A stretch of DNA of 64,000 bases from Nitrospinota bacterium (GTDB lineage Bacteria; JADFOP01), in NCBI GenBank assembly GCA_022562795.1, contig JADFOP010000007.1:1-64000 (forward strand), given 5' to 3'. The notes beneath the pieces were generated by a model. The model was not told the DNA's origin. It saw only the letters and a list, made by a program, of their open reading frames with translations, and made no database searches. Of this stretch, positions 7,310 through 36,131 are shown one piece after another (position 1 is the first letter of the stretch; every line of letters begins with the position of its first letter). The position numbers and the translations under genes are program-made.

Positions 7310-8134
7310 TCAGCGACGGTGCGTCCAGGCGGGGTCGGCGTACTTCTCTGCGGCCAGCGACTCGGCAAGGGCGCTCTCCTCCAGGCTGAGCTTCCCCTCC
7401 TTAAGAGTCACACCCAGATGGTCCTCAACGCCCTGGACGAGCGCTGAGGCCACCTTCTCCCAACCCAGCCTGCGCCCGGCCACCTCGCCGAGGCCCGCCA
7501 TCTCCCCGCGCCACCGGGCGATGAGGGCATCCTCGCGGCCTTCTTCCTTTTCCTCCGGATGCAGGCAGCGGTAGAGCAACGCGAGGTCGAGGGTCAACGG
7601 GAGGGAGCCGTGCTGGAGGAATGCGCGGCGGCTTCTGCGCTGAGCGCTGCCGAGGACCTTTCGGCCGTCCACCATCAGCTCATAGCTCGCCGGGACGGCG
7701 AAGCAGACAGGTGTCCTCGCCCGAAGGGAGCCTGGCTTCCGGGGAACGAGGGCCGCGGCGAGGCCGAGCTTCCCAAGCCCCACCGCGAACGCCTCGGTGA
7801 CGGTCCGATATACCTCCAGCAGGTCCTGCCAGCCGGGGAAGGCCCCATGGCGGGCCGCTAGGCTGTAGGTGACCTCGTCGTCGTGCAGGACCGCCTTTCC
7901 GGCCGTCGGCCTTCGGACGAGGTCGATCCCCTCCGCGGCCAGCAGATCGGGATTGACGCTCGACGCCGATGACTGACCGAAGCCCAAGGAGACGGCGGGG
8001 GGCGCCCACCTGTAGAGGCGCAAAGTCGGGGGGCCCGGGCTCGCCTCGACAGCCCGGAAGATGGCCTCATCGACGGCCATATTCCAGGCGCCCGGGGCGG
8101 GCCCGTCAATCAAAAGACGCCATTCTTCTGTCAT
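7310..8134 (-). CDS. lipoate-protein ligase family (LipM/LplA-type octanoyl/lipoyl transferase)
   Basis: NMAVDEA, LRLYRW, RRPTAGKAVLH, KVLGSAQRR, LQHGS. Confidence 0.88.
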   Translation of the reverse strand: MTEEWRLLIDGPAPGAWNMAVDEAIFRAVEASPGPPTLRLYRWAPPAVSLGFGQSSASSVNPDLLAAEGIDLVRRPTAGKAVLHDDEVTYSLAARHGAFPGWQDLLEVYRTVTEAFAVGLGKLGLAAALVPRKPGSLRARTPVCFAVPASYELMVDGRKVLGSAQRRSRRAFLQHGSLPLTLDLALLYRCLHPEEKEEGREDALIARWRGEMAGLGEVAGRRLGWEKVASALVQGVEDHLGVTLKEGKLSLEESALAESLAAEKYADPAWTHRR

Positions 8135-8234
8135 GGGAATTCAACGATTGGTGAGAGAAGGCAAAAGCCGGCAATCAATCCGGGTAGAATCGAGAGCCGC
8201 AACGGGCGCTCCTCGGCATCGAAAATAAACCCTA

Positions 8235-9413
8235 TCAGATGACCGGCCCCTCATCGGGTAGGAGTCGCGCGCCGATAAGCTTCCCGACGGCAGCCGTCAC
8301 GTCCTCAGGGGCGACCATAATGACGGCGCCGGAGCAGCCCATGCCGCTTGTCGAGTAGATGCCGGCCTTCGATAGACAGCGGACGGCGTCTTCAATCTCT
8401 AGGACGTCCACCCCTCCAATCGACTCGGAGACGGCCTTAGGCTTAGGCTGAACTACGGGTTCGCCGGCTTCCTCCGTGGATGGTCTTACGAGCTCCTCAA
8501 GGATGGACTCCAGCCCTGCCGCCTTCGCCGCCTGGAACTCCTCCAATACCCGCTCCGGCAAGCGGGCCCGGACCATCTGGGCGATAAAGGCCACCGCCCC
8601 GGCAATTACCTCAGCACCGGAAGCCCTAGAGATAATACCGATAATCCGCTCAAACCCCTCTCCTACACCCGGGCCGTAGCCGAAACCGAAGGCCTCGTAA
8701 GAGCCGCCCGTGGTGAAGGCGCTGAAGAGCTTGACCAGCAGGTTCCCCGTAAGTGTGTCGCAGACGAGTACGTCGGCCGTCCCCCAGAGGCAATCGTTTC
8801 CCCTAAGAAGGGGCCCGCCGTCGGCCCGGATACTCTCAGCCAACCGGATTGGGTACCCACCGGCGGCCAGTGAACTCACGGCACGCTCGACCTGCCGGGC
8901 CCCGTCCACCGTGCAGAGCCCCACCGACGGGTCATCCCATCCAAGAGCCCGAGCCACAGCCCGGCCCAACAAGACGTTCTTGACCATGGCCCCCACGCGG
9001 TGGGAGTCGGCAGCCCCCGTGCACGAGGCGACGAGCATCTCCTTGCCGCGACCAGGCGTCACCACGCGGCCAACCGTAGCGACACCCATTGGAAAGGGGT
9101 AATGGAGGGTCACGGCGGCGTCTAGACGCCCATCCTCCAGGGCCTCTTCCAACGCTGCGTGGCCGGCCTCCTCGCTCTCGACGGCAATCGTGGGGAGGTC
9201 CGTGCCTCCCTCGGAACCTATGACTACCACCTCGAGGGCATCGTCCCGGCTGGCGGCGAGCTCCGCTCCGCGGATGGCCTCCTCAGGCCCAAGCTCGCTC
9301 CCAATAGCGGTCAGCCCTACCCTGACGAGCGGCGTTGTAGCCACCCCCTCTACCGCATCGGCGACCTCGGCCAAAACCTCGCCGACCATCCTTCTCAGGC
9401 CATCGGGACTCAT
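8235..9413 (-). CDS. grdD: glycine/sarcosine/betaine reductase component C subunit alpha
   Basis: LHYPFPMGVATVGRVVTP, RADGG, TTGGSYEAFGFGYGPG, active-site SGMGC. Confidence 0.93.
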   Translation of the reverse strand: MSPDGLRRMVGEVLAEVADAVEGVATTPLVRVGLTAIGSELGPEEAIRGAELAASRDDALEVVVIGSEGGTDLPTIAVESEEAGHAALEEALEDGRLDAAVTLHYPFPMGVATVGRVVTPGRGKEMLVASCTGAADSHRVGAMVKNVLLGRAVARALGWDDPSVGLCTVDGARQVERAVSSLAAGGYPIRLAESIRADGGPLLRGNDCLWGTADVLVCDTLTGNLLVKLFSAFTTGGSYEAFGFGYGPGVGEGFERIIGIISRASGAEVIAGAVAFIAQMVRARLPERVLEEFQAAKAAGLESILEELVRPSTEEAGEPVVQPKPKAVSESIGGVDVLEIEDAVRCLSKAGIYSTSGMGCSGAVIMVAPEDVTAAVGKLIGARLLPDEGPVI

Positions 9414-10960
9414 AGAGCGCCCCCCTCGCCCAATCGTTCCGCCACCTCCCGGAGGGCCTCGGCCACCATTCGGCGGACCTCCTCTTTCGCAAGCCGGGGC
9501 TCTTCGGGCTCGGGGCGCCCGCCGTTCTCCTCCACGACGAACGAGAGCCCGTCGAAGAGGTTCGTCATCCGGCCGAGAAAGAGGCTCCCCTTACCGATCA
9601 CCATAACCCTTCGGAGGCGACCAGCCAGGATGTGGTCGCGGGCCGGCCCGAGATAGGGCACCCCCGAGGGGATATGGCCCTGCGTGGGGGCATAGCCGGG
9701 AAACCCATGGCGCGCGACGAAGGCGGGGAGGTCTTCCCGAGCAAGCTCGCCCCTCATGACGGCTAAGGCCCCGATTAGCCTTAGGTTGTTGTCGGTCACG
9801 TCCCCGGCCCCGGCCGGCACGGTGACCTCCGGGTTCTGGAGCTCCGGGGCGAACTTATCGACGTCGGCCACTTTAAGTCCGGCCCTACTCAGCGGCTCGG
9901 CGACAATCGCTTCGATGACCTTCTGGGGCGCGGCGGCAAGCCCGATTGTCTGGCGGCCCACCATATCGGTGCGGATCCACGGGCTCACTCCATCGTCGGC
10001 CGAAACCAGAACCGCGAAGGCGCCTAGCACATCTTCGAGCACGGGCAACCCCTTCTTGACGTGGTCCTTGCCGTTCATGCCCAGCTTGGCCACGCTCCCG
10101 CCGCCGACCACGGCCACCGAAGAGAAGACTCCGGCCTTGACGAGGCTCGCCGCCACCACAACCGAATGGACCGGGGCGGCGCAGAAATTGCGCAGGTCCG
10201 AGCCCGTGGCGTTAACGCATCCTGCGAACTCTCCTATTGCCTTGGCGAAGTTCCCCCCGCCTCGCTGGTTCATGTCGCCGCAGGCCTCCTCGGAGCACTC
10301 GATTAGGTATTCCACGCTGGCGGGCTCCACCCCGGCGTTCACAAAGAGTTGACGGAGCACCATGACCGCCGAGGCCTTCGCAACGAGGTTCTCCAAAATC
10401 ACGTGGGCGGTGAGGTTCGGGTCGAACTCGTGAGCCCTCTTGACGCAGCCCACGAGCTTTCCCCCCTGCCGGAGGGCCTCGGCCCTGCCCTCTTCCACCA
10501 GGGCGGCCACGGCCTCAGGCTCCTCACCCTCGCCGAGCCGCTCCAGATCCTCACTGCCAGCCATAGGATGGGACTTCAAAGCATCCCCGACATCGGCGGT
10601 GAAGGCCCGGGTGAGCAGAACGAGATCGAAGGTATCGACAATCTTCATCCAGGCCAAGAGCTTCGCCTCTGGCCAAATCTCCCCGTATTTGCCCGTCCGG
10701 GGGGCCTTGGAGATAGGGTTCTCAAGCCACGGCTTTTGCCCCTCGCCGAGCTCCTCTGGGGTGAGGTTCCCGATGTAGGTCTGGTTCGGCGGATAGGCGA
10801 GGACCTCTTCGTAGGTCCTAAGGGACTTTTCCAAATCCCGGAGGTAGGCGCTGTCCGGATCGAGGCGCCTCTCCACTGTCTGGGTCGATCCGTGGTCTCT
10901 GAGAACAGAGGGGGCGTGGATAAGGCTGTAAGCTGTTCCACGGAGAACGGGGAATGTCAT
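9410..10960 (-). CDS. grdC: glycine/sarcosine/betaine reductase component C subunit beta
   Basis: YPPNQTYIG, ECSEEACGDMNQRGGGNFAK, AKLGMNGKDH, APTQGHIPSG, GKGSLFLGRMTNLFDG. Confidence 0.95.
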   Translation of the reverse strand: MTFPVLRGTAYSLIHAPSVLRDHGSTQTVERRLDPDSAYLRDLEKSLRTYEEVLAYPPNQTYIGNLTPEELGEGQKPWLENPISKAPRTGKYGEIWPEAKLLAWMKIVDTFDLVLLTRAFTADVGDALKSHPMAGSEDLERLGEGEEPEAVAALVEEGRAEALRQGGKLVGCVKRAHEFDPNLTAHVILENLVAKASAVMVLRQLFVNAGVEPASVEYLIECSEEACGDMNQRGGGNFAKAIGEFAGCVNATGSDLRNFCAAPVHSVVVAASLVKAGVFSSVAVVGGGSVAKLGMNGKDHVKKGLPVLEDVLGAFAVLVSADDGVSPWIRTDMVGRQTIGLAAAPQKVIEAIVAEPLSRAGLKVADVDKFAPELQNPEVTVPAGAGDVTDNNLRLIGALAVMRGELAREDLPAFVARHGFPGYAPTQGHIPSGVPYLGPARDHILAGRLRRVMVIGKGSLFLGRMTNLFDGLSFVVEENGGRPEPEEPRLAKEEVRRMVAEALREVAERLGEGGAL

Positions 10961-11004
10961 GGAGAGCTCCTCTGTACCCTTACGGGCCCCAACCTCATCG
11001 TATC

Positions 11005-12351
11005 TCAGGCTGTCTGGCTCACCAATTCACCACCCATCTCGAAGACCGTTTGGACCTCGATGGGCGTCTCGAGCGCCCTTAGGGCCGTCTCCACGAGGCG
11101 GCGACGGAGGGCCCGCTCATCCTCCAGTGACAAGGTAGGGTCGCCCAAGGGGTGAGGGATCGCGATGGCCGGGATGATTCGGTTGGCCCCCACAGTCTTG
11201 GATATGGGAACAATGGAGACGATGTGAGCTACTGGAATCCCAATCCTTTCAATCTCTTTGACTATCGTTGCCCCGCAACGAGCGCAGGTTCCTCACGTGG
11301 AGACGAGGAGGACTGCGTCGACTTCGCCCTCCTCTAGCTCCTTGGCGATTTCCTCGCCGAAACCTTTGGCATTTTTGACCGCCGTGCCGTTGCCCACAGT
11401 GGAGTAGTAGAAAGGATGGATATCCCCGATGATGCCCTCATCCTGGAGCTGACGAATGGTATCTATCGGAAGGACTCGGTCCGGGTCTTCGTTGGCGTAC
11501 CGGTTATCGTACCCCCCGTGCACCGTCTGGTGGCTCTCGCCCGTTAGGTCGTTCACCCCATCTAGGCTGTATCGACCGAACTTCGTGGCGTTGGAAGCCT
11601 CAATACGGTCGGGGTTGCCATGAGGGACGATGCCTCCGGATGTGACCAGCGCCAGCTTGATTGTTGAAAGATCGGTGATGGCCGGTGGAGGATCAATTCG
11701 ATCGAACACAGGCATCGGGTACTCGGTGACGAACGGTTCTCCCCGCATCTTCGCCAGCAGCATATCGACCGCACGCCTCGCCCCCCGCTCGCTTCGCTGG
11801 ATGTTGACTCTCAATCCACGGGGCAGATAACCCTCTTCTTCGGGGCTTCCGAGCGACTCCCCACGGGCGAGCTTGAGCCCCAGGCGCGTCATCGTCGCCA
11901 CCGCCTCGCGCATGCCGGCGGCGGAGTCCTCCGTCGGAACGATATAAGCGCTCTTGCGGTAGAGCTCCTCCCCGGGGTTCTCCTCGTACATCCCCGTCAC
12001 CGCCGGCAGGCCCAACGATTCCACAGCCAGCTCGCAGACGGCCCCGCAGGCCACCCCATATCGGCCCGCGTTGAAGGCGGGCCCGGCGATGAGGAGGTCG
12101 GGGCGAAAGGCCTCAATCAACCCCCTCGCCTCTTCCTGGGCGGCGCAGGCATTGGCCGCAAAGTAGTCGTCGCCGCAGATAACGGTCCCGACGATCTCGG
12201 CGGCCTCTCCGAAGGCCTCCTGGAAGGCGAGGCCGGGGCCTACAAAACCATCCCTGGTAGTGAAACCGACCCCCGCCTGCTCCTCGCCGCCCAGTTGTCC
12301 GAAGAACTGATTGAGGTAGTGCACGACCCGTATTTTCGTGCTCCCGCTCAT
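11005..12351 (-). CDS. grdB: glycine-type reductase selenoprotein B (448 aa, UGA at 11293-11295 read as Sec)
   Basis: VVHYLNQFFGQLGGEE start; reading through TGA gives LVST-U-GTCARCGAT and continues in frame to GANRIIPAIAIPHPLG. Confidence 0.93.
11265..11281 (-). promoter_or_regulatory. candidate SECIS hairpin of grdB
   Basis: TCGTTGC-GGG-GCAACGA 7-bp stem starting 11 nt downstream of the UGA. Confidence 0.65.
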
Positions 12352-12372
12352 TCTACATCCTCCCCTCTGTTC

Positions 12373-12837
12373 TCAGTGCTTGGTTAAATCTCCCCGGATT
12401 CGGCTCACCGTCTCTCCGATCTCCTCTACGGGGAGCACCATCTCCATCATGGCGATCTGCTCCTCGTAGATGGAAGAATCCACGGCAGCCTTAAACTCAG
12501 GCTCCAGGACGTGATAGACGCGGAGCCCCAACTGAGCTCCAGCCAATGGACCCACATAGGTAGGGTCGCCCGCCGTCACCGTCTCGGCGTTGACGGCCAC
12601 GGCCCCACCATCCGCCCCGCCAAGGATGACGACCAGCTTGTCAGCTCCATGCTGCTCAGCGATCTCCTTGATCCGGGCCTGGTTCTCTAGGTCCATCGTC
12701 CCAGCAGCCGTTCAGACGAAACACTCGGTGGCTGAGAAAACCACCTCGGCGCCGGCGCCTTTAACACACGCCTCGATGGCGGGCGCCGGTATGCCATCTC
12801 GATCACCGATGACGATGACCTTTCTCTCGTTGAACAT
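12373..12837 (-). CDS. grdA: glycine-type reductase selenoprotein A (154 aa, UGA at 12712-12714 read as Sec)
   Basis: GDRDGIP...[17 protein letters not shown]...[25 protein letters not shown] before ATG 12837. Confidence 0.95.
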
Positions 12838-12868
12838 GGACCCTCCTTTCATCTGCAAGCTCTCTCCA

Positions 12869-14158
12869 TCACATGCCGATCGCCGAGAGCCGTTCGTATC
12901 CCAAGATGTTTGTAGCCCCCACGATGGCCTGCAGCTCCACCGTGATTGAGCCGTCATCCGCCAAGCAACCTGCATATCCGCCAGCCAAAACGTCTGCGCT
13001 CTCTATATGCCCGATTATCCGCTTCATGGGAGGCAGGGTGATCGTCGCATTTGCGTTTCCGGACGAGACCACCGCATCGGCCAGTTTGCTGGCATCGACA
13101 AGGCTCTGAGAGGCGCCGTCGCGGCCAGCGAACTCATCGGTCATCAAGACCGTCCTGATGCCCCGCTGCTCAACCTTATTGCAAATCATAATGAGGTCGG
13201 TGTCGGGGTTGCCAAAGCCCTCTTCAGAGATGATGGCGCCGTCGACGCCGAGCATCCCAACGAGCTTGGCCGCATAGTCGCTGGAGCGCTCCTTATCGGC
13301 GAGGGTGACGTTCTCGTTGGTTATGATCACGCCCACAAAGTTGAGCTCCTCGCCATGGCGCTCGTAGAGCTCCTCGATGACCGGGTTGTTCAGGTGGTGA
13401 TAGGTCGTATTCTTGTCACAGGCCGACACGCAGTTGCCGCTGACTATGGCTCCGTCCATGGCCTCCGTCGGGCTTATTATGCTCGGCAAAATGGTCTTCG
13501 CATCGACGCCGTATACGTAGGTATCGTGAAGGAGCCCCTGGCTCTGGAGCATGTAGACGAAGGCGACCTTTGGGAGCCCAGGAAAAGCCGTCAGGGCCTC
13601 AGACAAAGCAGGCGCTTCGTAGCCGGCCACCTCGTCTGGAGAAACTTCGCGCGCGGCCTCGCCCAGGTAAGCCGCCGCCCTGAGGCCCGCCAGCCGAACG
13701 GCCGTCTCTTTTTCGCTGGGCGCGATATCGTCCTTGAAATCGAACAGCAGGACGATGTTGTGGAGTTTCGAGAAAGAGGAGAGTTCCGCCCCAGGGCCCT
13801 CCATGTCGATGATGCCTTCCTGGAAGGCGATGATTTGACTTACAGTGACAACAGCGCAACCCTTTAGGGCCAGGGTCCTGCCGCTTCCTACGGTCTGAAC
13901 CCCCGAGACGAAGCCCGGGAAGACCCCTCCGGGTCCGTCCACCTTCACCCTGGGTTCGATTACATCTTTAACCGGCATGATGCGGGTGGACTCCCCCGGG
14001 TGGGCGAGCTCGACTCCGACGCCGAGGATGCGGTTGTCGTCCCCTTGAGCCTGGCGGCAGAGCTCTTCCCGGTCGATGATGAGCGTCCCGCCGATCACCT
14101 GAGTGTTGTCACCAAACTGGACATCTCGGATGTAAACCTTTCCTACCTCTAAGCGCAT
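12869..14158 (-). CDS. grdE: glycine-type reductase component B alpha/beta proprotein
   Basis: MRLE..., [38 protein letters not shown] cleavage region, [11 protein letters not shown]. Confidence 0.92.
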
Positions 14159-14547
14159 GGATTGTCTCTCCCATTTGAAGTGGAATGAGAAGGGTGGAGG
14201 CGTCGAATGCCTGTTGAAAGGAGCTCGAAATCTATTGCCTGAAGGCCTGCCGTCACCCGCTCAGGCGGGGACGGCGGGGGTCCGAAACCCCGGAGCGCCT
14301 CCAGAGCGTTCTCGAGCATCGTAATGGAGGTGGGTTCTCCGTCGCCACCAGGGCGAGCGCTGAGGACGAAGGAGCGGAAAAAGGCCTGACTCGGCCTAAG
14401 GTTTCCGAGCTTTGGGTGGAGAAGAAAGCGGTGCCCCTTATGGACGGCGTCCCTGACGACCTCCAAGACGTTCATGGGCGGTCCCTCGAGCAGGCGGGCC
14501 TCGGGGTAGTGTTGGAGGACAAGAGGGTTGTTAGTGAAGATCCGCAC
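14149..14547 (-). CDS. grdX: GrdX family protein
   Basis: IFTNNPLV...VRDAVHKGHRFLLHP.LGNLRP...IDFELL pattern; overlaps grdE start. Confidence 0.8.
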   Translation of the reverse strand: MRIFTNNPLVLQHYPEARLLEGPPMNVLEVVRDAVHKGHRFLLHPKLGNLRPSQAFFRSFVLSARPGGDGEPTSITMLENALEALRGFGPPPSPPERVTAGLQAIDFELLSTGIRRLHPSHSTSNGRDNPCA

Positions 14548-14600
14548 GGTTACCGCCGGAAAGGTTTCCAGGAAAAAGGCGCACCGGTTTGTAAGCGCGG

Positions 14601-14984
14601 TTACTCCTCTTCGATAAGGCTCTTGTACTGCTCAGCCGTCATCAGGTTTTTCAATTCGGCGTCATCGGCGATAGCAACCGCTATCATCCAGCCCCCGCCG
14701 TAGGGGTCGCTGTTAACGAGCTCCGGCCCATCCTCCAGAGCCCCATTGACTTCCAGAACCTCGCCCGAGATTGGCGCGTGTAGGTCGTTGACCGCCTTGA
14801 GCGATTCAACCACCCCAAACGAATTCCCTTCCTCGACATTATCGCCGAGCGCGGGAAGCTCAACATAGATAATCTCTCCGAGCTGGTCTTGAGCGTAGGC
14901 TGTAATCCCAACGAAACACTTTCCATTTCGATCCCGTGCCCATGTGTGTTCCTGGCTATAGAGCAGTTTTCCGGGAATTTCCAC
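14601..14984 (-). CDS. gcvH: glycine cleavage system H protein (lipoyl carrier)
   Basis: VGITAYAQDQLG, VVESLKAV with lipoyl Lys, LVNSDPYGGGW. Confidence 0.95.
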   Translation of the reverse strand: MEIPGKLLYSQEHTWARDRNGKCFVGITAYAQDQLGEIIYVELPALGDNVEEGNSFGVVESLKAVNDLHAPISGEVLEVNGALEDGPELVNSDPYGGGWMIAVAIADDAELKNLMTAEQYKSLIEEE

Positions 14985-15002
14985 TTAAGCGTAATTTTTC
15001 AC

Positions 15003-15566
15003 CTACTTTATCCAACGGAGCATAGTCTTGAAATCATCCGTGCCGACCCGCTCCAACATTTCGAAACAAACCATCTCGGTGGACTTGATTAGAGCCCCGG
15101 CTTGCCGGGCCAGAGCGATGCCGGCTTTACAGTCCTCCTCTCGCCGGGAGATTACGGCATCCTCCACCACATGGCAGACGTAACCTCGATGAATCAGATC
15201 GAGGGCCGTCTGGAGCACGCAGACATGGGCCTCCGCTCCAAGGACCACGAGGTCGGTGGCGCCGGTCTGTGAGATCGCCTCCAGCGTGGGAGCGTCTATC
15301 CCCGCCGAGAAGGTATCCTTGACCAAGGGCTCGTAGACGGGCAATGCCTCTGAGACGGTCTCCTCGGTTGGGCCGAGCCCCTGAGGGTACTGCTCGGTGA
15401 CGAGGATCGGTACGTTGAAAGTCTTGGCCAAGGCGATGAGCTTATGGACGTTGACCAGGCGCTCCTTGAGAAGCTGTTGGTCCATGGCTTTGATGAGGTT
15501 CGCCTGAAAATCGATGATAATGAAGGCGCTTCGCTCGGAAGATATGATAAAGGGGTGACGGTCCAT
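15003..15566 (-). CDS. isochorismatase-family (YcaC-like) cysteine hydrolase
   Basis: IIDFQ, TEQYPQGLGPT, K..FS, GAEAHVCVLQTALD. Confidence 0.88.
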   Translation of the reverse strand: MDRHPFIISSERSAFIIIDFQANLIKAMDQQLLKERLVNVHKLIALAKTFNVPILVTEQYPQGLGPTEETVSEALPVYEPLVKDTFSAGIDAPTLEAISQTGATDLVVLGAEAHVCVLQTALDLIHRGYVCHVVEDAVISRREEDCKAGIALARQAGALIKSTEMVCFEMLERVGTDDFKTMLRWIK

Positions 15567-15624
15567 GGACGGCGGGTCCCCCTCAGGGATTAGGGCTGGC
15601 GTCGGCGTTCCAGGCGAGGCAGGG

Positions 15625-15677
15625 ATGAGAAGCTCTTTTCTTCTCATAAATGTATCTCCTCCTCCGGGATCTGTCAA
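15625..15677 (-). promoter_or_regulatory. promoter of the hydrolase-gcvH-grd operon with overlapping inverted repeat
   Basis: TTGACA(15677-72)-17 nt-TACATT(15654-49), then ATGAGAAG-N7-CTTCTCAT (15625-15647). Confidence 0.6.
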
Positions 15678-15699
15678 CTGGTTTTTTCGTCCTCCGGCC

Positions 15700-17820
15700 C
15701 TAGGATGACCCGCTTGGGGGAGGGAGAACCACCACGTGGTCGCAGACCGACGCGACCGCCTCGTGGTGAGTGAAAAGAATGACCTGGCGCTGCTGGGCGA
15801 TGGAGGAGAGCAGCTTCATGGTAGCCCCGAGGCGCCTTTCATCAAAGGAGCCGAACGGCTCATCGAGCAGCAGCGGTGTCCGCTTATTGCCCGCCAATAG
15901 CTCCGTCAGCGTCAGGCGGGCAGCCAAGAGAAGCTGCTCGGCCGCGCCGAAACTAAGCTCCTGGGACCTCACGAAATCCTCCCGCTCGGGACCCAGCACT
16001 TCGAGGGCCGACAGGGTCGTCCCCAACCTGACCTCCGTATATCTCCCCACGCTCATTTTGGACACATAACGGCCGAGAATCTCCTGAAACCGTTTCGCGG
16101 CTGGCCCTATCGCCGCCTGGCGAGACTCCTCCAGGGCGGTTTTGGCCAACTCTCGCACCTGAAGGCTCCTTCGGTGACGATTGAACTCGCGTTCGGCCGC
16201 ATCAATGGCCTCCTCCAACTCGGCCAGGCCTTCGGACTGATCGAATGAGATCTCGAGTATCGTCATCAGGCGGTCAACCTGCTTCGTGAGCTTGTCCCGA
16301 CTGACAGCGAGTTTCTCAGATTCCATCCCAATTTCCGCAAATTTTTCCGGATCGAGGGCCGGCCCGCCGAAGCGCTCCTCACTCAATCGCTCCTCTAAAA
16401 CGGCCATCTTCCGTAGAAGCTCACTCCGCTCCGCCCCTAGGGCCTCCGCAGACCGTCCTCCGAGCAAACCTTCGCGTTCGCTGAGAAGTCTCTCCCGCTC
16501 ATCCCTGATGCGGGCCGCCTTCTCGGCCCGGCGGAGAGTCTCTTCGGGCGAGGTCACTCCCGCCCGGTGCGAGAGCTCGCCGAGCCTCTCTTCCACCTCC
16601 TCCAGCTCCGCCTCTCGCCTGGTCGCCTCAGCCCGACGGTCACCTAGCACCCGCCTTGCCACTGCTCTGCGGTACCAGAGCCAGGTGGCGACGGCCAGGG
16701 CAACGGCCCCCAGAACCGTTGCCCCTAGTTTCAGCCAAGGGCTCACCATGCTCGGAGCCAGCAGAGCAGCGATGCCTAAAACTCCCAAAAGCGCCTGGCC
16801 CCAGAGGCTCGGAACGGGCGTATCCTTGAGGGCTTTCCGGGCCTCTTTAAGCGAGGTGGTAAGGATGTCGCGACGTTCCAGCGCCCCCCGTAGCGCCGTG
16901 AGGCCTCCGGCCTCAAGAAGGGCAGCCGAGCCGAGCCCCTCGAGGGCCTTATCGGCCTCCCGGACTCCCTGGGCGTTTTTCTCAAAAGCCCAATGCCGCC
17001 TTTCGATTTCAGAATACCGCTCTTTGTGCTCATTAAGAGAGTCCTGGAGCTTCCGACGTTCGGTCTCAACGGCCAGCAGGGACTGCTTCGCATCGAGGGC
17101 GCCTGCAACCTCCAAGAGCTCCCGTTCGGCGGCCTTCAGGGCTCTTTGGTCCGAAACCCTCTGGGCGTAGATCAAAGCCACCTCTCTGTATCGCCCCTGG
17201 AGGCTTGCCAGCCGCTCCTCGGCCGCCTTAATCGGGCCGGGGGTCTTATAGGCCTTATCCTTCAGGCCTATAGTTAAGTTCTGAATATTCTTGTCGAGGA
17301 GCTCGATGGCCCGTTCTGCGCCGCCTCCTTCTCCTCCGCCGGTCATCGCATTAGCCAATGCCTCCTCCAGGGCCTTTCGACCCTTTCCTCGCTCCGGCAG
17401 GACGAGCTGGCCCTGGGCCACAGCGGCCGATGCGGCGAAGACCTCTGGGGTCTTCATGCCGAGGAGATCCTCGATTTGGCCGAGGGCCGACTTGGCATCC
17501 CGCCATACCTTTCCCGTCGGCTGCTCTTCGAGGAGGATCTCCTTGCTGTGGAAATCCTTCCAGAGCCGATAGTTGAGATCGCCTGAGCGGAAATGGAGTC
17601 GGATGGCGAAGGGCCTCTCGTCGCCCCAGGCGTAAAGCGAACGGACCTCCTCCCGCGAACTCTTTGGGTCCCAGAATAGGGCTGCCTCCAAGGATTTAAA
17701 GATGGTGGATTTGCCCGACTCGTTTGGGCCCACGACGGCGTTGAGCCCCGGCCCGAAGTTGCAGGCAAAGCGTGGGGAGAAGCGCCGCACCCTCTCCAGC
17801 TCCAGCCGCTCCAGAATCAC
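15700..17820 (-). CDS. SbcC/Rad50-like (YhaN-type) ATPase with central hydrophobic hairpin
   Basis: Walker A GPNESGKST, coiled coil, signature LSFGAAEQ, Walker B LLLDEPF, H-loop FTHH. Confidence 0.85.
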   Translation of the reverse strand: MILERLELERVRRFSPRFACNFGPGLNAVVGPNESGKSTIFKSLEAALFWDPKSSREEVRSLYAWGDERPFAIRLHFRSGDLNYRLWKDFHSKEILLEEQPTGKVWRDAKSALGQIEDLLGMKTPEVFAASAAVAQGQLVLPERGKGRKALEEALANAMTGGGEGGGAERAIELLDKNIQNLTIGLKDKAYKTPGPIKAAEERLASLQGRYREVALIYAQRVSDQRALKAAERELLEVAGALDAKQSLLAVETERRKLQDSLNEHKERYSEIERRHWAFEKNAQGVREADKALEGLGSAALLEAGGLTALRGALERRDILTTSLKEARKALKDTPVPSLWGQALLGVLGIAALLAPSMVSPWLKLGATVLGAVALAVATWLWYRRAVARRVLGDRRAEATRREAELEEVEERLGELSHRAGVTSPEETLRRAEKAARIRDERERLLSEREGLLGGRSAEALGAERSELLRKMAVLEERLSEERFGGPALDPEKFAEIGMESEKLAVSRDKLTKQVDRLMTILEISFDQSEGLAELEEAIDAAEREFNRHRRSLQVRELAKTALEESRQAAIGPAAKRFQEILGRYVSKMSVGRYTEVRLGTTLSALEVLGPEREDFVRSQELSFGAAEQLLLAARLTLTELLAGNKRTPLLLDEPFGSFDERRLGATMKLLSSIAQQRQVILFTHHEAVASVCDHVVVLPPPSGSS

Positions 17821-18968
17821 TCCAGTACCCCCTCTCGCCCATCGAGCAAGGCCAGGCCTACCTGTAACGCCTCCTCCACGACACGCCGCTCATCATCGCC
17901 TTTGGCTGAGCCGAGGCGCTTTGCCATGAACCGGACGAATCGGCCGGCCACCGTGGCCTCAGGATGGCGGTCGAGCGCCTCCGCCTCAAGGCGAGAATGC
18001 GCGCCATCCGTTATGCGCAAAAAGTAGAAATGGGGCGCAAGGACCTCCTCCATCTCTTCGAGCGTGTGGGTCGTCCAGGAGCAATCGAGGGGTTTCAGAC
18101 CAATGAGCCTGACGTCGAGCATGCTGTCCGGGTCGGCCAGGCTGCGAATGGCCGCCTCAAGAGTTGAAGCCTCGGGATGCTCCTCAATCGACAGGGTGAG
18201 GTTTTCGGTCCGACACCGGCCCACTTCTAGGGACTCGACGACAGTCTCTTGCTCATTGATGGTGACCAGGAGCACCCGACCGGCCCCGGCATCTTTGGGA
18301 TACAGCACCTCCGGGGAGCCGCAATACCAGGCGGTTACCCCGCCCCGGGAGTAGTCGGCCGGTTTATGCCAGTGGCCCAACGCCAGGTAGTTGAGGCCGC
18401 TCGAGGCAATCTCCCCCGGTGCGATTGGGAAGTCGCCCTCCCCAAGCAGGTCGCCAAGCGCCACCGAGCCGTGGGCCACGCCGACGACGAGCCCCTCTCG
18501 CCCCTTACCATTCACCCCTCTCATAGGACTCTCCGGCGAGGCGTTGGTCGTGTTGGGCCGGGCAATGAGGGTCAGCCCTAAAGCGGGAATCATCCGCTCC
18601 ACCACTTCCTCACCGATGAGGAGCTGGAGCCCCGGGACTTTCTCTTCAAAGGGCACAAGCCGCCAAATCGAGTCGGGCCCATCGTGGTCGTGAGTTCCGG
18701 GGGCCAGGGCTACGGTAATCCCCGCCTCTCCCAGACGTCTAAGCTCCGCCAGGGCTAGCTCCACGCTGCCCTTAGACGGGGCCGCCGAGTCGAAGAGGTC
18801 TCCCGCCACAAGAAAGAGATCCACCCGGCGCGACAGCGCCTCCTCCGCCATTCGCTTAAAGGTCTCCGAAACCTGGCGCCGGTGGTCTTTGCCCCTGGGC
18901 CCCAGGTAGGGGAAGGACGCCCCCAGGTGGACATCCGCCGTGTGGAGCAGGGTTATGGGTCGGCCCAT
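17817..18968 (-). CDS. SbcD/Mre11-like (YhaO-type) metallophosphoesterase nuclease
   Basis: HTADVHLG, AGDLFD, PGTHD, LALGHWH, YCGSPE. Confidence 0.9.
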   Translation of the reverse strand: MGRPITLLHTADVHLGASFPYLGPRGKDHRRQVSETFKRMAEEALSRRVDLFLVAGDLFDSAAPSKGSVELALAELRRLGEAGITVALAPGTHDHDGPDSIWRLVPFEEKVPGLQLLIGEEVVERMIPALGLTLIARPNTTNASPESPMRGVNGKGREGLVVGVAHGSVALGDLLGEGDFPIAPGEIASSGLNYLALGHWHKPADYSRGGVTAWYCGSPEVLYPKDAGAGRVLLVTINEQETVVESLEVGRCRTENLTLSIEEHPEASTLEAAIRSLADPDSMLDVRLIGLKPLDCSWTTHTLEEMEEVLAPHFYFLRITDGAHSRLEAEALDRHPEATVAGRFVRFMAKRLGSAKGDDERRVVEEALQVGLALLDGREGVLE

Positions 18969-25132: not shown

Positions 25133-26212
25133 TTAGTCGGAACCCTCCGCTTTCGATACGGCCCCGCCGAAGATGTCGAGGTATTGCAGACCGTCAGGAT
25201 GGCCCAGGATGATGTCGACCCCGACATTCCGGAAAACGGCCGAGGCCCATTTGTACTCCTCTAGCGTTTGGGCCGTCCCGATAGCGAGGAATGGAACTGT
25301 AGCATCGGCCGCCCTTGCCGCCAGGAGGTCGTCGGGGGTATCGCCAACGTAGGCAGCCCTGACCGGCCGCCCCTCAGCGATTCGCCGGACCGCCTCCAGG
25401 AGGCTCCAGGGATGGGGCTTGCTCAACCGCTCAGGCTCGCCCCCCTTGTCGCGCTCGGCCGCCTCGGCCTGGAGCACGTCCTCGTCGTCCACAACCGTGG
25501 AGAAGTAATCAGCGATTTCGTGCCTACTAAGAGCGTGGGCGGCCTCGGCACGGGGACGTCCTGTCGCGATACCGAGAGGCACTTGTGAAGCCAGACGCTC
25601 CAGAACGGAGCGGTCGATGAGGAGCTCCTCGCGCTCGATGAGCCCCGGTTCCTTAAGGACCAGAGGCGCCTCGCCGTATGTAGTCTCAAAAAGCTCCGGG
25701 CCCAGATACATCTCTTGGAAGAGCCGCATGATGACGTTTCCCTCGGTCAGGGATCCAAATGCGACGGGAAAGAGCTCCTCGGAGAGGGCGGCGGCGGCTA
25801 GGGCAGAGGCAAGCCCACCAGCGTCCTCAGACACCTGCTCGGCCAGGCCCATGAGGTCCGCACGGCGGGCGAGCTCCTCAACGCCCACACCCTGGAGGGG
25901 CCCCCACTCGCCTAAGATCTCCAAGTACGAGGCCATCCCCCCTGAATCGGGGTGCGGGGGCAAGGGCTCAGGTAAACTCGCGGCGAACGCCGCCGTCACT
26001 GCAGCCGTACACTCCCAGTCATTGTTGAGCCCACCCGCCAACTTGAAGGCATCCACCTCCTCGGGGCTTACTAGCTCTTCCTCCATCGGCTTGAGCCGAC
26101 AGATAACCTCGAAGAAGACCTGGGGCACACGTCGGATGGCTTCCCGGTAGCTTCCCGAAACATCCACCAGAACACCGTCCATGTCGAAAATGAGGACATC
26201 TATCTTGGTCAT
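25133..26212 (-). CDS. HAD-superfamily hydrolase
   Basis: FDMDGVLVD, NNDW, ATGRP, KPHP, YVGDTPDD. Confidence 0.85.
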   Translation of the reverse strand: MTKIDVLIFDMDGVLVDVSGSYREAIRRVPQVFFEVICRLKPMEEELVSPEEVDAFKLAGGLNNDWECTAAVTAAFAASLPEPLPPHPDSGGMASYLEILGEWGPLQGVGVEELARRADLMGLAEQVSEDAGGLASALAAAALSEELFPVAFGSLTEGNVIMRLFQEMYLGPELFETTYGEAPLVLKEPGLIEREELLIDRSVLERLASQVPLGIATGRPRAEAAHALSRHEIADYFSTVVDDEDVLQAEAAERDKGGEPERLSKPHPWSLLEAVRRIAEGRPVRAAYVGDTPDDLLAARAADATVPFLAIGTAQTLEEYKWASAVFRNVGVDIILGHPDGLQYLDIFGGAVSKAEGSD

Positions 26213-26485
26213 GAGAGCGCCCCTGGCTTTAGGATCACCCGATTAAGAAACCGGGGCATTTTAGCGCGGTGGGCAACCCAACGCAACGGCTCCGAGGAGG
26301 AAAGCGAGTTTATGGCGTCAGCGCTCTGGAGGAGGGCTTGCCTGCGCCTTTAAAACTTCAAAGGTTAGATTATTGTGTTGTATATAAATTTATACATATT
26401 TAGTGATGTATATTTACAATTATCAATTGGACCTATATATTAATTCGCGATTATATACTTGACACAAGGCCCACTATGACCTATA

Positions 26486-26623
26486 TTATACTTTAGGAGG
26501 CTTATCACGATGCTTTTCATCCATAACCTCTCGGACCTTTTTAATGACCTTCTTAGGGAAAAGGCTCTCCATGAGCTCCTCCGTGGTCATTTCGTCGGCC
26601 CGCTTTTTTTTCTTCTTACTCAT
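26486..26623 (-). CDS. small basic hypothetical protein inside IS (45 aa, below ORF-track cutoff)
   Basis: Translated by hand: MSKKKKKRADEMTTEELMESLFPKKVIKKVREVMDEKHRDKPPKV*; starts 8 nt after the stop of the upstream small ORF. Confidence 0.5.
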   Translation of the reverse strand: MSKKKKKRADEMTTEELMESLFPKKVIKKVREVMDEKHRDKPPKV

Positions 26624-26631
26624 ACCGGCAG

Positions 26632-26781
26632 CTATTTCCAAAAGGCGAGATATTCAATGACCAACATTGCCCACCCGCCTACGATGAATATCAATGTGTC
26701 TTTTGTGTCCCAAGGAAATGTGGTGAAATAGACATAGAGACTAACAAGGCCCATGAATATTAGGAAAGTTAGAAAGTGCAT
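26632..26781 (-). CDS. small two-helix membrane protein inside IS (49 aa)
   Basis: MHFLTFLIFMGLVSLYVYF...LIFIVGGWAMLVIEYLAFWK; GGAG RBS; divergent from transposase. Confidence 0.45.
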   Translation of the reverse strand: MHFLTFLIFMGLVSLYVYFTTFPWDTKDTLIFIVGGWAMLVIEYLAFWK

Positions 26782-26817
26782 ATTTAGGCTCCCAATGAAG
26801 GGAAAGGAGTCCTCGCT

Positions 26818-27738
26818 ATGAGCAAAGAGGCCAAATTCAAAAAGCCCGAAATAAACCTCGTTGAACTCATCGAGCAATACCAGGATGAGGATAAGTGTCG
26901 TGCCGCCCTTGAAAGTCTACGCTGGCCCGACGGTGTTGAGTGTCCACGGTGTCACCACAAGGGAATCTCAAAAGTAAAGAAGCGCGGACAGTTCGATTGT
27001 AACTCATGCCGCTACCAATTCTCTGTAACGGCAGGCACCATCTTTCACGATAGTCACCTGCCCCTGTGGAAGTGGTTTCTCACGATCTACATGATGATTG
27101 AGTCCAAAAAGGGTGTCTCTGCCAATCAAGTCAAGCGAACCATCGGAGTCTCGTACAAGACCGCGTGGTATCTCTGCCAACGAATCCGCAATGCCATGAC
27201 TGAACCCGACCCCCCGAAGCTGAGGGGCATCGTTGAGGTAGATGAAACGTGGGTAGGCGGCAAGAGAAAGGGCGTCGGGCATGGGTATAAGGGGAACAAG
27301 ACCGTCGTTGTCGGGGTAGCTCAACGTGGCGGCAAGGTGAGGCTCCAGGTCGTCCATGCAAGGGACAGAAAGACCCTTCACAAGTTCATTAAAGAGCATA
27401 CCGCGCCCGATACCGAAGCCATCTACACCGACGACTGGCCACCCTACAGGGGAATAGCAGACCATGACACAAGGCATGAGACCGTCACTCACCGGAAAGA
27501 GGAATGGGTTAGAGATGATGTCCATACTAACTCCATCGAAAACGTTTGGAGCCTCTTGAAGCGTTCCATTATGGGTACTTACCACAAAATCAGCGCAAAA
27601 CATCTTGACGCTTACCTCGACGAGCTTGAGTGGCGGTTCAATAACCGAGACAATCCATACCTTTTCCGGGATACGCTGCGTAAACTCATTGGAGCCAACA
27701 ACCTCACCTACAAGAAATTGGTGGAACAACAAAACTAA
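26818..27738 (+). CDS. IS1595-family DDE transposase
   Basis: RWPDGVECPRC Zn ribbon, FSVTAGTIF, VEVDET, IYTDDW, HTNSIENVWS, YLDELEWRFN. Confidence 0.95.
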   Translation: MSKEAKFKKPEINLVELIEQYQDEDKCRAALESLRWPDGVECPRCHHKGISKVKKRGQFDCNSCRYQFSVTAGTIFHDSHLPLWKWFLTIYMMIESKKGVSANQVKRTIGVSYKTAWYLCQRIRNAMTEPDPPKLRGIVEVDETWVGGKRKGVGHGYKGNKTVVVGVAQRGGKVRLQVVHARDRKTLHKFIKEHTAPDTEAIYTDDWPPYRGIADHDTRHETVTHRKEEWVRDDVHTNSIENVWSLLKRSIMGTYHKISAKHLDAYLDELEWRFNNRDNPYLFRDTLRKLIGANNLTYKKLVEQQN

Positions 27739-27983
27739 TCTTCTAGCTCAATTTCAAACTCAGTTATCATTTTCTTATCTTGATGAAGATGTCCAAAGGC
27801 GTCTCCCAGGAGAGATAATCCCTCATAAACATAATCCGGATATTCTTTCTTACAAGCAGGACATTCAACTATTTTTACATATTTGTCTAGGTCATATTGT
27901 ATCCGTGTCTTACAGTACGGACAGGAAATATCTACGGTTTTAATTTCATAAAGTCCTATGCGGATTGTCTTTCTAACCATCAT
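27735..27983 (-). CDS. small Zn-ribbon-like passenger protein
   Basis: CPYC...CPAC pair; GGGGAGGA RBS. Confidence 0.6.
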   Translation of the reverse strand: MMVRKTIRIGLYEIKTVDISCPYCKTRIQYDLDKYVKIVECPACKKEYPDYVYEGLSLLGDAFGHLHQDKKMITEFEIELED

Positions 27984-28002
27984 AAATCTTCCTCCCCCAA
28001 GC

Positions 28003-28830
28003 TCATTGGCTCTGAGAACCCTCCATATCAGGAGGCAACGGATAAATAGGAATATCTTGGTCTATTCCTATATGCTCAACACGAAAACGGAGTCTATACA
28101 AATCCGAATATTGAACAATTTTATTGAGTTGGTATCTAAGCCTATAATCCTTCCTTCCCCATTCTTTAAATTGTTCTCCATCAGCAAATGGTTGGCCTGT
28201 AATCTCTACTCCCCTTCCTAACCATTGTACCATTTGTCTATAATTATCAAACAAATCTCCGAATAGGTTTTGTAATTGCTCTGAATCAAGCTTTAGCTTG
28301 CTATCTGGCCTTAAGGCACGAACCAAATTGTTGTGAGCTTTCCTAGCCTGTGGAATAAGATTCTCTTTAAGAAATACTCCAATATTGTGTTTAGCAATGT
28401 CATTATCACTATGGAGCACCATTGCGGTTTTTTCCAGATATTTATCTGTTTGCGTAAATGCTGGCCTGGCAAAATCTTTGTATATATTCCACAGTTTATC
28501 CTTGGCTGGTCTAACAAGCTCTTCTGCAATTTTTTCCCTCACGGGTTCTTCTGCCTTTTCAGCTTCTCCTAATTCTAAAAATACCTCTCCCTGTCGAATT
28601 AGCTCAGGCTTCTCAGTTTTTAAGGCCTGGAGTTCCCTTTGTTGTCCTAATACAAGTCCGATAACCGAAGCAAAAAATATTCCCAGACCAATAGCGACTT
28701 GAATCTTTAAGGGGAGACCAAGAGAGAAAACACCCCAAGCGTCCATGACTATTGACCCAACCGTCCAGATTGGGCCAATGACCAGGCCCGCCTGCAAAAG
28801 CAGTCTACGGATTGTTCTAAGCTTTCCCAC
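28003..28830 (-). CDS. hypothetical passenger protein with two N-terminal TM segments
   Basis: 275-aa ORF in AT-rich DNA; hydrophobic N-terminus then charged helical region. Confidence 0.7.
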   Translation of the reverse strand: MGKLRTIRRLLLQAGLVIGPIWTVGSIVMDAWGVFSLGLPLKIQVAIGLGIFFASVIGLVLGQQRELQALKTEKPELIRQGEVFLELGEAEKAEEPVREKIAEELVRPAKDKLWNIYKDFARPAFTQTDKYLEKTAMVLHSDNDIAKHNIGVFLKENLIPQARKAHNNLVRALRPDSKLKLDSEQLQNLFGDLFDNYRQMVQWLGRGVEITGQPFADGEQFKEWGRKDYRLRYQLNKIVQYSDLYRLRFRVEHIGIDQDIPIYPLPPDMEGSQSQ

Positions 28831-28992
28831 CCCTTAATTCTAGCATGGCTCTTACCTTGTAGCAAGGTGATAAGCGCGTATTAATTATAGAATGTATGCC
28901 TCCCAACGCCTACGTTTATATTATATGTGGGCTTTAGGGTGTTCAATCGGAAGGTCATCAATTCTGATGTTTCATGCATAGAAGGACGTGAT

Positions 28993-29265
28993 ATGCCTGC
29001 GAGACCTACAATTCCGAGGGAGAACACAAAGATAAACCTTCAGGTGCCAAAAGACCTTTTAAGGGAAATTGATGAATATGCTGCCGAGGCATCAAAAAGC
29101 CGTAGTAGCGTCATTCGAGAGGCCATGGCTAAGCTTTTGGAATTCAAAAAGCAAAGAGAGCTTGAAGAACTATTGCACGAAGGTTATGAGGCCACAGCAG
29201 AGTTGACCCTTAAAATACACAGGGAATTTAAACCCACAGAACACGAGCTTGATTGGGAATATTAA
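28993..29265 (+). CDS. ribbon-helix-helix (CopG/NdoAI-like) antitoxin
   Basis: KINLQVPKDLLREID...SRSSVIREA RHH pattern, EGYE C-terminal motif, directly upstream of toxin. Confidence 0.8.
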   Translation: MPARPTIPRENTKINLQVPKDLLREIDEYAAEASKSRSSVIREAMAKLLEFKKQRELEELLHEGYEATAELTLKIHREFKPTEHELDWEY

Positions 29266-29286
29266 ATTTAGGTTAAAATTATCAAA

Positions 29287-29643
29287 ATGGCCGGACATGA
29301 AATAAGACGTGGAGAAGTATGGTTAGTTAACCTAGAACCTGTTGTTGGCAAGGAAATCGGGAAAGTTAGGCCCTGTCTAATTATTCAGAATGATATTGGA
29401 AATGAAAGGTCTCCATTAACGATTTTTGCCCCAATCACTGGAGTCAAGCATTTAGAGAGACATTATCCCTTTCAGGTTTTTGTACCATCTGGCGAAGGTG
29501 GATTAACAAAAGACTGCATAATATTGTTAGATCAAATACGAACAAGAGATAAACCAAGGATTATCGAATATGTGGGTAAACTCTCTTCCTCTACAATGGC
29601 TCAAGTTGACCAAGCCATAAAAATTAGCCTGCAACTACAATAG
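29287..29643 (+). CDS. mazF: PemK/MazF family toxin (mRNA interferase)
   Basis: RRGEVWLVNL, GKVRPCLIIQND, GGLTKD..ILLDQIRT.DK.RI. Confidence 0.92.
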   Translation: MAGHEIRRGEVWLVNLEPVVGKEIGKVRPCLIIQNDIGNERSPLTIFAPITGVKHLERHYPFQVFVPSGEGGLTKDCIILLDQIRTRDKPRIIEYVGKLSSSTMAQVDQAIKISLQLQ

Positions 29644-29692
29644 CTTATCTAATAATTTTCATATTCAAACCAGGACAATACCCAGGCAGGTA

Positions 29693-35906: not shown

Positions 35907-35998
35907 TGGCGGAGAGAGTGGGATTCGAACCCACGAGGGGGTTTGACCCCCCTACACGCTTTCCAGGCGTGCCCCTTCAGCCTCTCGGGCATCTCTCC
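35907..35998 (-). tRNA. tRNA-Ser(GGA)
   Basis: GGAGAGATGCCCGAG...CTGGAAA...GGTTCGAATCCC...GCCA with long variable arm. Confidence 0.96.
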
Positions 35999-36037
35999 AT
36001 GCGATCGCCATCGGCCCACCAGCGACCTAATTTCTGC

Positions 36038-36131
36038 TGGCGGAGAGTGAGGGATTCGAACCCCCGGTACCGGTCGCCCGGTACACCAGATTTCGAATCT
36101 GGCGCCTTCAACCTGACTCGGCCAACTCTCC
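36038..36131 (-). tRNA. tRNA-Ser(CGA)
   Basis: Anticodon arm CCAGA-TTCGAAA-TCTGG, long variable arm, GCCA end. Confidence 0.95.

Follow-up and report, generated by a model that had tools for sequence, protein, structure and literature searches.

A glycine reductase cluster without thioredoxin genes, set between gcvH and a LipM-type ligase gene at an apparent former glycine cleavage locus of a Nitrospinota bacterium

Results

Nine genes around a selenium-dependent glycine reductase

We analysed a stretch of 64,000 nucleotides (nt), hereafter the window, from a Nitrospinota bacterium (GenBank assembly GCA_022562795.1, contig JADFOP010000007.1, here C68). It carries the genes of a selenocysteine (Sec)-dependent glycine reductase (grd) between gcvH, encoding the H protein of the glycine cleavage system, and a gene for a LipM/LplA-type lipoyl ligase. 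The assembly has 2.15 Mb in 84 contigs and is 97% complete. Three species genomes represent the phylum: the window genome (G000), a fragmented congener (G001, 85% complete) and a member of another genus of the same class (G002). Nine co-directional genes occupy positions 15677-7310 of the minus strand in the order iso (isochorismatase family)-gcvH-grdX-grdE-grdA(Sec)-grdB(Sec)-grdC-grdD-LipM-type ligase, with intergenic distances of -10 to 100 nt (Table 1). The coordinates of the open reading frames and the family models bear out the gene order, the single strand and the grdX/grdE overlap described in the original prediction. They also agree with its statement that the thioredoxin genes trxA and trxB as well as gcvT, gcvP and lpd are missing here, as none was found on the contig and the genome-wide family matches all fall on other contigs. 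The host had been taken for a non-clostridial organism, and it does belong to a three-species phylum outside Bacillota.

Table 1. Features of the nine-gene locus and its upstream neighbours, in window positions.
Feature	Position	Strand	Evidence and remarks
sbcD-like and sbcC-like genes, upstream anchor	15700..18968	-	Pfam Metallophos; AAA_23/SMC_N
iso, isochorismatase-family (cysteine hydrolase) gene	15647..15003	-	PF00857, 93.8 bits
gcvH	14984..14601	-	TIGR00527, 152.6 bits (cut-off 115.85)
Weak terminator-like hairpin and T-run in the 53-nt gcvH-grdX spacer	14599-14580	-	Consensus scan
grdX	14547..14149	-	NF038093, 78.7 bits (cut-off 40); 10-nt overlap with grdE
grdE, component B proprotein	14158..12869	-	61-67% identity to GrdE of 80 Bacillota-type loci
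grdA, selenoprotein A	12837..12373	-	TGA codon 42; NF040748, 239 bits (cut-off 130)
grdB, glycine reductase selenoprotein B	12351..11005	-	TGA codon 353; TIGR01917, 619 bits (cut-off 602.2)
Sec insertion sequence (SECIS) directly 3' of the grdB UGA	11255..11292	-	Rfam RF01990 SECIS_4, 46.9 bits (gathering score 38)
grdC, component C beta subunit	10960..9410	-	NF040746, 733 bits (cut-off 450)
grdD, component C alpha subunit	9413..8235	-	NF040747, 494 bits (cut-off 350)
Single-domain LipM/LplA-type lipoyl/octanoyl transferase, 274 aa	8134..7310	-	PF21948, 118 bits

The iso gene may start at its ATG, which has GGAGGAGGAG directly upstream, or at an alternative TTG at 15677, and its closest solved relatives are MAR1/isochorismatase-family proteins. 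The promoter previously placed before iso is present as a lone consensus match (TTGACA-17-TACATT, 15677-15649). This match overlaps the ribosome-binding site and start of iso, and a scan of 9 kb gave two such matches where shuffled sequence would give 1.6, so that the motif itself was confirmed and its reading as a promoter was not. No glycine riboswitch was found at the Rfam gathering score 5' of iso/gcvH or 5' of gcvT of G002. The gcvH-grdX spacer with its hairpin is nearly identical in L116, a metagenome contig of the same lineage with 97% nucleotide identity, which carries iso-gcvH-grdX-grdE-grdA.

The locus corresponds to a glycine cleavage operon in a relative

In G002, homologues of sbcD and sbcC are followed on one strand by gcvT-gcvH-gcvPA-gcvPB-ligase. 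The window counterpart reads sbcD-sbcC-iso-gcvH-[grdXEABCD]-ligase, iso filling the slot that gcvT holds in G002. The anchor was recovered by tblastn in the same relative position 5' of the G002 gcvT (SbcD, E 1.5e-19; SbcC C-terminus, E 2e-7), GcvH and the ligase are 54% and 36% identical between the two genomes, and GrdE had no match in G002. Since sbcDC is conserved upstream, the window locus appears to be the old gcv locus, and the shared anchor together with the flanking gcvH and ligase genes indicates that a trx-less grd cluster replaced gcvPA/PB in situ, with G002 as the single informative relative for this synteny argument. The simplest history would be that, within the old gcv operon, grd took the place of gcvPA/PB and iso that of gcvT. 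GrdE is nearest to Bacillota-type proteins, which fits an acquisition by transfer in a direction that we infer.

Operons for glycine cleavage that end in a ligase gene are ordinary. A ligase gene lies downstream in 6 of the 80 closest gcvH loci, and one metagenome operon (L117:8868-18722) reads gcvT-gcvH-gcvPA-gcvPB-(333 aa)-radical SAM (321 aa)-ligase-lpd-glyA. The gcv operon of Thermacetogenium phaeum likewise ends in a lipoate ligase gene, as gcvT-gcvH-gcvPA-gcvPB-(lpd)-lplA (PMC12674515). The two genes ahead of the ligase in L117 may encode LipS1/LipS2-type lipoyl synthases. The original prediction held that a lipoylated GcvH may be the dithiol donor for selenoprotein A (GrdA), and its main support, the bracketing of grd by gcvH and the ligase gene, is accounted for by an insertion of grd into an ancestral gcvT-gcvH-gcvPA-gcvPB-ligase operon.

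Recurrence of the arrangement was surveyed from each of its parts. For grdE, the best 80 of at least 585 GrdE-encoding loci were taken from one-genome-per-species contigs with flanks of up to 10 kb, and tblastn found homologues of the window GcvH, ligase or iso near grdE in 0 of the 80. For gcvH, grd genes were present in only one of the 80 closest metagenome loci, namely L116; a GcvT-like gene stands just upstream of gcvH in 42 of these loci. The GrdX family matched 8 of the 13 genomes in one small phylum and 31 of the 401 genomes sampled from the phylum of genome G061, and no gcvH was found within 1.5 kb of grdX at any of 38 loci from two other phyla (ten further matches came without a locus). 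From these counts the bracket is specific, within the searched set, to one species-level lineage. Conservation of the gcvH/ligase linkage in relatives, which had been named as a point on which the donor idea would stand or fall, was seen nowhere in these surveys outside the lineage of the window.

An orphan H protein with an altered aminomethyl pocket

A TIGR00527 family search showed that the window gcvH is the only one in the genome. The lipoyl lysine had been described as intact, and K63 in the ESLK motif indeed aligns with K64 of E. coli GcvH. Against L116, the ratio of non-synonymous to synonymous substitution rates (dN/dS) is 0.21, calculated from few changes (8 synonymous, 6 non-synonymous), and by this estimate gcvH is under purifying selection; the value for grdE, 0.26, is similar. 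We aligned the window protein and E. coli GcvH with GcvH from 78 of 81 loci that passed the coverage filter, and residues were counted over 77 other sequences. Glu-12, His-13, Lys-64 and Asp-68 (E. coli numbering) are retained in the window protein. In contrast to nearly all others, it has Thr for Glu-14 (T14; Glu in 75 of 77), Asn for Ser-67 (N66; Ser in 76 of 77) and His for Tyr-70 (H69; Phe or Tyr in 74 of 77, Leu in L116), and in no other aligned sequence do two or more of the three deviations occur together. One E. coli study, the source of the residue roles, reports that Glu-12 and Glu-14 keep the aminomethyl-lipoyl arm locked inside its cavity and that Ser-67, Asp-68 and Tyr-70 govern the release of the arm induced by the T protein (PMC7733448). 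With Glu-14, Ser-67 and Tyr-70 altered, the changes fall on the part of GcvH that serves glycine cleavage chemistry. This pattern would fit a true loss of the P and T proteins; relaxed constraint or an adaptation to some new partner would agree with it just as well. The protein scored below the cut-offs of the models for specialised carriers of the LbpA/GcvH-L types ('not_gcvH', 70.9 bits against 144; GcvH-related desulfo model, 42 against 150) and is 54-57% identical to GcvH of gcvT-gcvH-gcvP operons.

The ligase and the lipoate metabolism of the genome

BirA and the window ligase are the only BPL-family proteins encoded in the genome, and the ligase gene is its sole member of the LipB/LipM/LplA family. 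No LplB/C-terminal ligase domain (PF10437) was found in the genome. The nearest Atlas cluster of the window ligase is 'Octanoyltransferase LipM' (score 0.96), its closest solved structure is Thermoplasma LplA, and it passed no curated LipM or LplA equivalog. Its Cys144, the candidate acyl-enzyme cysteine, precedes the conserved Lys159 by 15 residues, which would match the spacing of Cys150 and Lys165 in LipM. One E1a-E1b-E2-LipA operon for a 2-oxoacid dehydrogenase and one Lpd above cut-off were found, and no LipL-type amidotransferase was present among the BPL-family genes. Bacteria with LipM and LipA and lacking LipL have been reported, and a broader specificity of LipM or an unidentified transferase is suggested for them in PMC10332631.

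Thioredoxins and the reductant of GrdA

The statement that clostridial grd clusters usually carry trxB/trxA was checked on the 45 of the 80 grdE loci in which at least 3 kb upstream and at least 9 kb downstream were visible, the other 35 being left out. Both genes were present in 40, trxA only in one, trxB only in one and neither in three (L086, L088, L090), in agreement with the statement. Bacillota grd clusters contain 79 TrxA-like genes in 69 loci, 70 of them with a readable C-x-x-C motif; this motif is x-CEPC in 42, GCAPC in 8 and WCGPC in none, which suggests that these proteins form a specialised class of thioredoxins travelling with glycine reductase. The thioredoxins of the window genome have only WCGPC and WCAPC motifs, and three WCxxC thioredoxin-like proteins were found in addition. 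Its single trxB lies on C59 in a housekeeping context (acyltransferase-trxB-dciA), and its two canonical trxA genes lie on C81 and C26. The genome search that had been proposed thus recovered trxB, two trxA genes and Lpd outside the window, but no extra gcvH, no gcvP, no canonical gcvT and no formate-tetrahydrofolate ligase (FTHFS). The missing dedicated reductant keeps the dithiol-donor idea alive, but it is no evidence for GcvH.

The reading that we favour is that grd replaced gcv in place and that housekeeping thioredoxin serves GrdA. The alternative that survives best is a thioredoxin-independent reductase, in which lipoyl-GcvH, reduced by NADH-dependent Lpd, would re-reduce the Se-S bond of GrdA, directly or via thioredoxin. 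We regard it as possible but doubtful, and the same holds for its corollary that gcvH and the ligase gene stayed in the operon for the sake of GrdA reduction. The genome does contain Lpd, and it has an intact, co-oriented gcvH with its lipoyl lysine 53 nt 5' of grdX, under apparent purifying selection, with no P or T partner left and with alterations at exactly the residues used for aminomethyl carriage; a grd-type thioredoxin and a cluster-encoded TrxB are both missing, and one RNA-library contig (described below) crosses the gcvH-grdX spacer. There are also precedents: in Eubacterium acidaminophilum, electron flow from the lipoyl group of the H protein through the thioredoxin system and PrpU to GrdA has been proposed (PMC4056300), and Wood-Ljungdahl clusters of acetogens keep orphan gcvH-lpdA pairs without other glycine cleavage genes (PMC7132306). 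However, insertion into the old gcv operon explains the bracket fully, the linkage is confined to a single species-level lineage, the genome can draw on canonical TrxB and TrxA, and the spacer between gcvH and grdX holds a terminator-like hairpin. The strict form of the proposal, an electron path NADH -> Lpd -> lipoyl-GcvH -> GrdA that bypasses thioredoxin and uses a pocket remodelled for the new partner, seems to us rather unlikely. If true, this would be the first example in nature of an H protein of glycine cleavage acting as reductant of a Stickland-type selenoenzyme.

Substrate, selenocysteine decoding and product

The grd reading frames are open except for the two expected TGA codons and pass curated cut-offs. 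The redox motif of GrdA is C-F-V-U (C-x-x-U), and the NF040748 match runs across the TGA. A reading as sarcosine reductase, which the top NCBIfam names and the isochorismatase/N-carbamoylsarcosine-amidase family of iso might suggest, was rejected because full-length GrdB scores above the cut-off of the glycine model and below that of the sarcosine model (GrdF, 632 bits against 800), and because iso is nearest to MAR1-type proteins. The betaine model also stayed below its cut-off (GrdH, 508 bits against 775). GrdE has Cys243 in an SGNC motif, presumably the pyruvoyl-forming cleavage site; the glycine-specific GrdE model was not among its family matches. Phosphotransacetylase (Pta) passes TIGR00651 (C22:1144-2145), and the acetate kinase family had no match in the genome, so that acetyl-phosphate would feed acetyl-CoA rather than substrate-level ATP synthesis.

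The Sec machinery was only partly recovered. ARAGORN predicted two tRNA-SeC (tca) genes (C58:1708-1801 and 15724-15811). Neither selA nor selB was found beside them, their neighbours being urease, urea-transporter and transhydrogenase (PntAB) genes. In the 97%-complete assembly the SelA family gave no match and SelB none above cut-off; the best long candidate, a 598-aa GTPase on C71, was rejected as SelB because it is LepA. For grdA, no SECIS was detected at the gathering score, and the fold downstream of its UGA was no better than shuffled sequences (z 0.48). These gaps are what speaks for a second alternative, in which the grd genes would be present but non-functional as a selenoenzyme system, for instance after loss of Sec decoding, with the whole locus drifting. 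We consider it improbable in view of the two tRNA-SeC genes, the SECIS at gathering score after the grdB UGA, the open frames with curated cut-offs passed, a grdE dN/dS of 0.26 against L116 and the contigs on grd genes in RNA libraries of two studies (below); a selAB operon could moreover sit in the missing 3% of the genome.

Traces of related genes were observed elsewhere. An isolated stretch of 39 residues in the window genome (C42:2197-2313) matches the C-terminus of GrdB (residues 399-437) with 64% identity and may be left over from a second gene of the selenoprotein B type; a second GrdE-like copy was not detected in this genome by tblastn with GrdE. The congener G001 has extra GrdE/GrdB-like pairs of 42-55% identity (C13:1390-2310 and C27:35-382; L106, L111), which may be reductases for another substrate.

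Genes for the P protein and a canonical T protein were not found

Searches of the window genome with PF02347, and by tblastn with GcvPA/PB of two metagenome gcv operons, gave no GcvP, and none matched in the 85%-complete assembly of G001. The sole GcvT-like gene (C58:21225-22337; L013:1474-2586) encodes 370 aa; it stands 340 nt away from the end of its contig, after nifS-iscA and before a gene for a DAO-type flavoprotein that the contig end cuts. It was rejected as the missing T protein on account of its scores below all three GcvT cut-offs, its YgfZ/CAF17-type domain above cut-off, its nifS-iscA neighbours and its identity of 30% to canonical GcvT, and is more probably a folate-dependent Fe-S factor. 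Such a YgfZ-like paralogue could pass for a T protein in pathway predictions. FTHFS also gave no match in the 97%-complete genome.

The lack of GcvP, canonical GcvT and FTHFS contradicts the second proposal of the original prediction, a direct coupling of glycine cleavage or synthesis to glycine reductase. Such a coupling, by disproportionation or in a reductive glycine pathway, would now require that the P and T genes lie in the unassembled 3%. The GcvH does still pass the GcvH equivalog model, and the assembly is broken into 84 contigs, one of which ends near the GcvT-like gene. Nevertheless we judge this very improbable, given that the former gcvPA/PB site is assembled in full and occupied by grd, that GcvP is missing from two assemblies of the genus, that the GcvT-like gene is a distant YgfZ-type protein beside nifS-iscA, that FTHFS was not found and that the aminomethyl-pocket residues are altered.

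The junctions recur in independent data

In 17 sequencing runs from at least 8 studies of marine and other sediments, half or more of the sampled words of the locus were present. DNA runs from two further studies yielded contigs over 11031-16000 (X2, 5489 nt), spanning sbcC-iso-gcvH-grdX-grdE-grdA-grdB, and over 12428-15000 (X5, 2573 nt), spanning gcvH to grdA; the grdD-ligase junction is bridged by other contigs of both runs. Although the assembly is of a fragmented, metagenome type with 84 contigs, these independent contigs, the gene order of L116, the 17 runs and the flanking synteny with G002, which ties the contig to the phylum, leave next to no room for the juxtaposition being a chimeric assembly or binning artefact.

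Two RNA libraries gave contigs at 90-99% identity on parts of grdE, grdA, grdB, grdC and grdD, and a 247-nt contig (X18, 14397-14643) crosses the gcvH-grdX spacer and its hairpin. The libraries (X18, X19) are without contigs on most of gcvH, on iso and on the ligase body, which is no sign of silence. Because RNA-library contigs may include DNA and cannot prove a single transcript, they give a weak hint of expression and read-through.

Elsewhere in the window, two segments (26001-30000 and 50001-52000) have a G+C content of 0.44-0.49 against about 0.58-0.68 in the remainder and may be foreign DNA islands. On the minus strand at 35907-36477, four genes for tRNA-Ser (gga, cga, gct, tga) are tightly clustered with one for tRNA-Arg (gcg).

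Discussion

Taken as a whole, we put at about an even chance an account in which grd replaced gcv in place, gcvH and the LipM-type ligase gene remained as lipoate-attachment gear, and housekeeping thioredoxin reduces GrdA. The grdX-E-A-B-C-D genes would have been acquired horizontally without the usual trxB/trxA and would have replaced gcvPA and gcvPB within an ancestral sbcDC-gcvT-gcvH-gcvPA-gcvPB-lipM locus, the isochorismatase-family gene taking the former place of gcvT. The lineage would thereby have exchanged oxidative glycine cleavage for reductive deamination, in which glycine, inorganic phosphate and two electrons would give acetyl-phosphate and ammonia, the acetyl-phosphate then being converted to acetyl-CoA by phosphotransacetylase. 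From the old operon gcvH and the ligase gene would survive, and we propose that they were kept because they are part of the only lipoate-attachment route of the cell, which serves the single E1-E2-LipA operon. The H protein would no longer carry aminomethyl groups, and oxidised GrdA would most probably be re-reduced by the housekeeping TrxB/TrxA encoded elsewhere.

Several observations weigh against this account. The pocket changes of GcvH could equally mean adaptation to a new partner. gcvH lies only 53 nt 5' of grdX on the same strand, and the spacer is spanned by one 247-nt RNA-library contig. As the atypical thioredoxins of the grd type are missing, the physiological reductant of GrdA is not self-evident. 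Neither SelA nor SelB was found in the assembly, and even the signs of an active reductase are indirect. The relay from LipM through GcvH to E2 is left without a known second enzyme, since no LipL was found; if E2 is instead a direct substrate of the ligase, the cell could do without GcvH, which is nevertheless intact and apparently under purifying selection.

If grd did take the place of gcv, one chromosomal site records a swap from oxidative cleavage to selenium-dependent reduction of glycine in an uncultured, barely sampled phylum of marine sediments, far from Bacillota, the usual home of glycine reductase. The locus also offers a natural orphan H protein in which the lipoyl lysine is preserved and the aminomethyl pocket has decayed or been remodelled. 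It is a test case for the role of an H protein without a glycine cleavage system, with lipoyl relay and redox carrier as candidate functions, and for whether a lipoyl protein can stand in for thioredoxin as the reductant of selenoprotein A. For pathway prediction it is a caution, as the presence of gcvH, lpd and grd in a genome does not amount to a capability for the reductive glycine pathway.

Comparison with known systems

Literature searches of partial coverage, on gcvH together with glycine reductase clusters and on glycine reductase in Nitrospinota (the top 12 of 252 matches), turned up no account of this arrangement. The canonical grd operon of Bacillota (grdX-trxB-trxA-grdE-grdA-grdB-grdC-grdD) has the same grd genes in the same order, a GrdE of 61-67% identity, both selenoproteins with an in-frame UGA and a SECIS after the grdB UGA. 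Unlike it, the window cluster has no trxB/trxA, its grdX overlaps grdE, and it sits within what is left of a gcv operon in a three-species phylum outside Bacillota. With the reductive glycine, or glycine synthase-reductase, pathway the window genome shares glycine reductase and Pta, whereas GcvP, canonical GcvT and FTHFS were not found in it.

Among H proteins, a functional parallel is E. (Peptoclostridium) acidaminophilum, in which the dihydrolipoyl group of the H protein is proposed to be linked to the reduction of GrdA. There, however, the electrons would come from glycine oxidation by a complete set of P, T and H proteins and run via thioredoxin (PMC4056300), whereas the window genome has no P, no T and no thioredoxin in the cluster. 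The gcvH-lpdA pairs of acetogens (PMC7132306) also show an H protein kept in the gene cluster of another pathway; that pathway is a different one, and the window gcvH has a ligase gene as its neighbour and no adjacent lpd. The specialised LbpA/GcvH-L lipoyl carriers form a separate branch, whereas the window protein passes the canonical GcvH model. For lipoate attachment, the relay LipM-GcvH-LipL of B. subtilis (PMC10332631) is matched by a single-domain LipM-type enzyme, GcvH and LipA, and the lack of LipL is shared with the LipM/LipA genomes described in the same source. The window ligase differs from LipM of that relay in passing no curated LipM or LplA model, and its specificity here is a prediction from the protein sequence.

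The gcv operons of T. phaeum (PMC12674515) and G002 share with the window locus a gcvH near the front and a ligase gene at the end, and that of G002 shares the upstream sbcDC as well. In place of gcvT, gcvPA and gcvPB the window has iso and the grd cluster, and in its GcvH the aminomethyl pocket no longer has Glu-14 and Ser-67. All parts of the locus thus belong to known families, and what is new is their combination: a trx-less grd cluster nested in what appears to be a gcv remnant, an H protein with an altered pocket, and a host phylum outside Bacillota.

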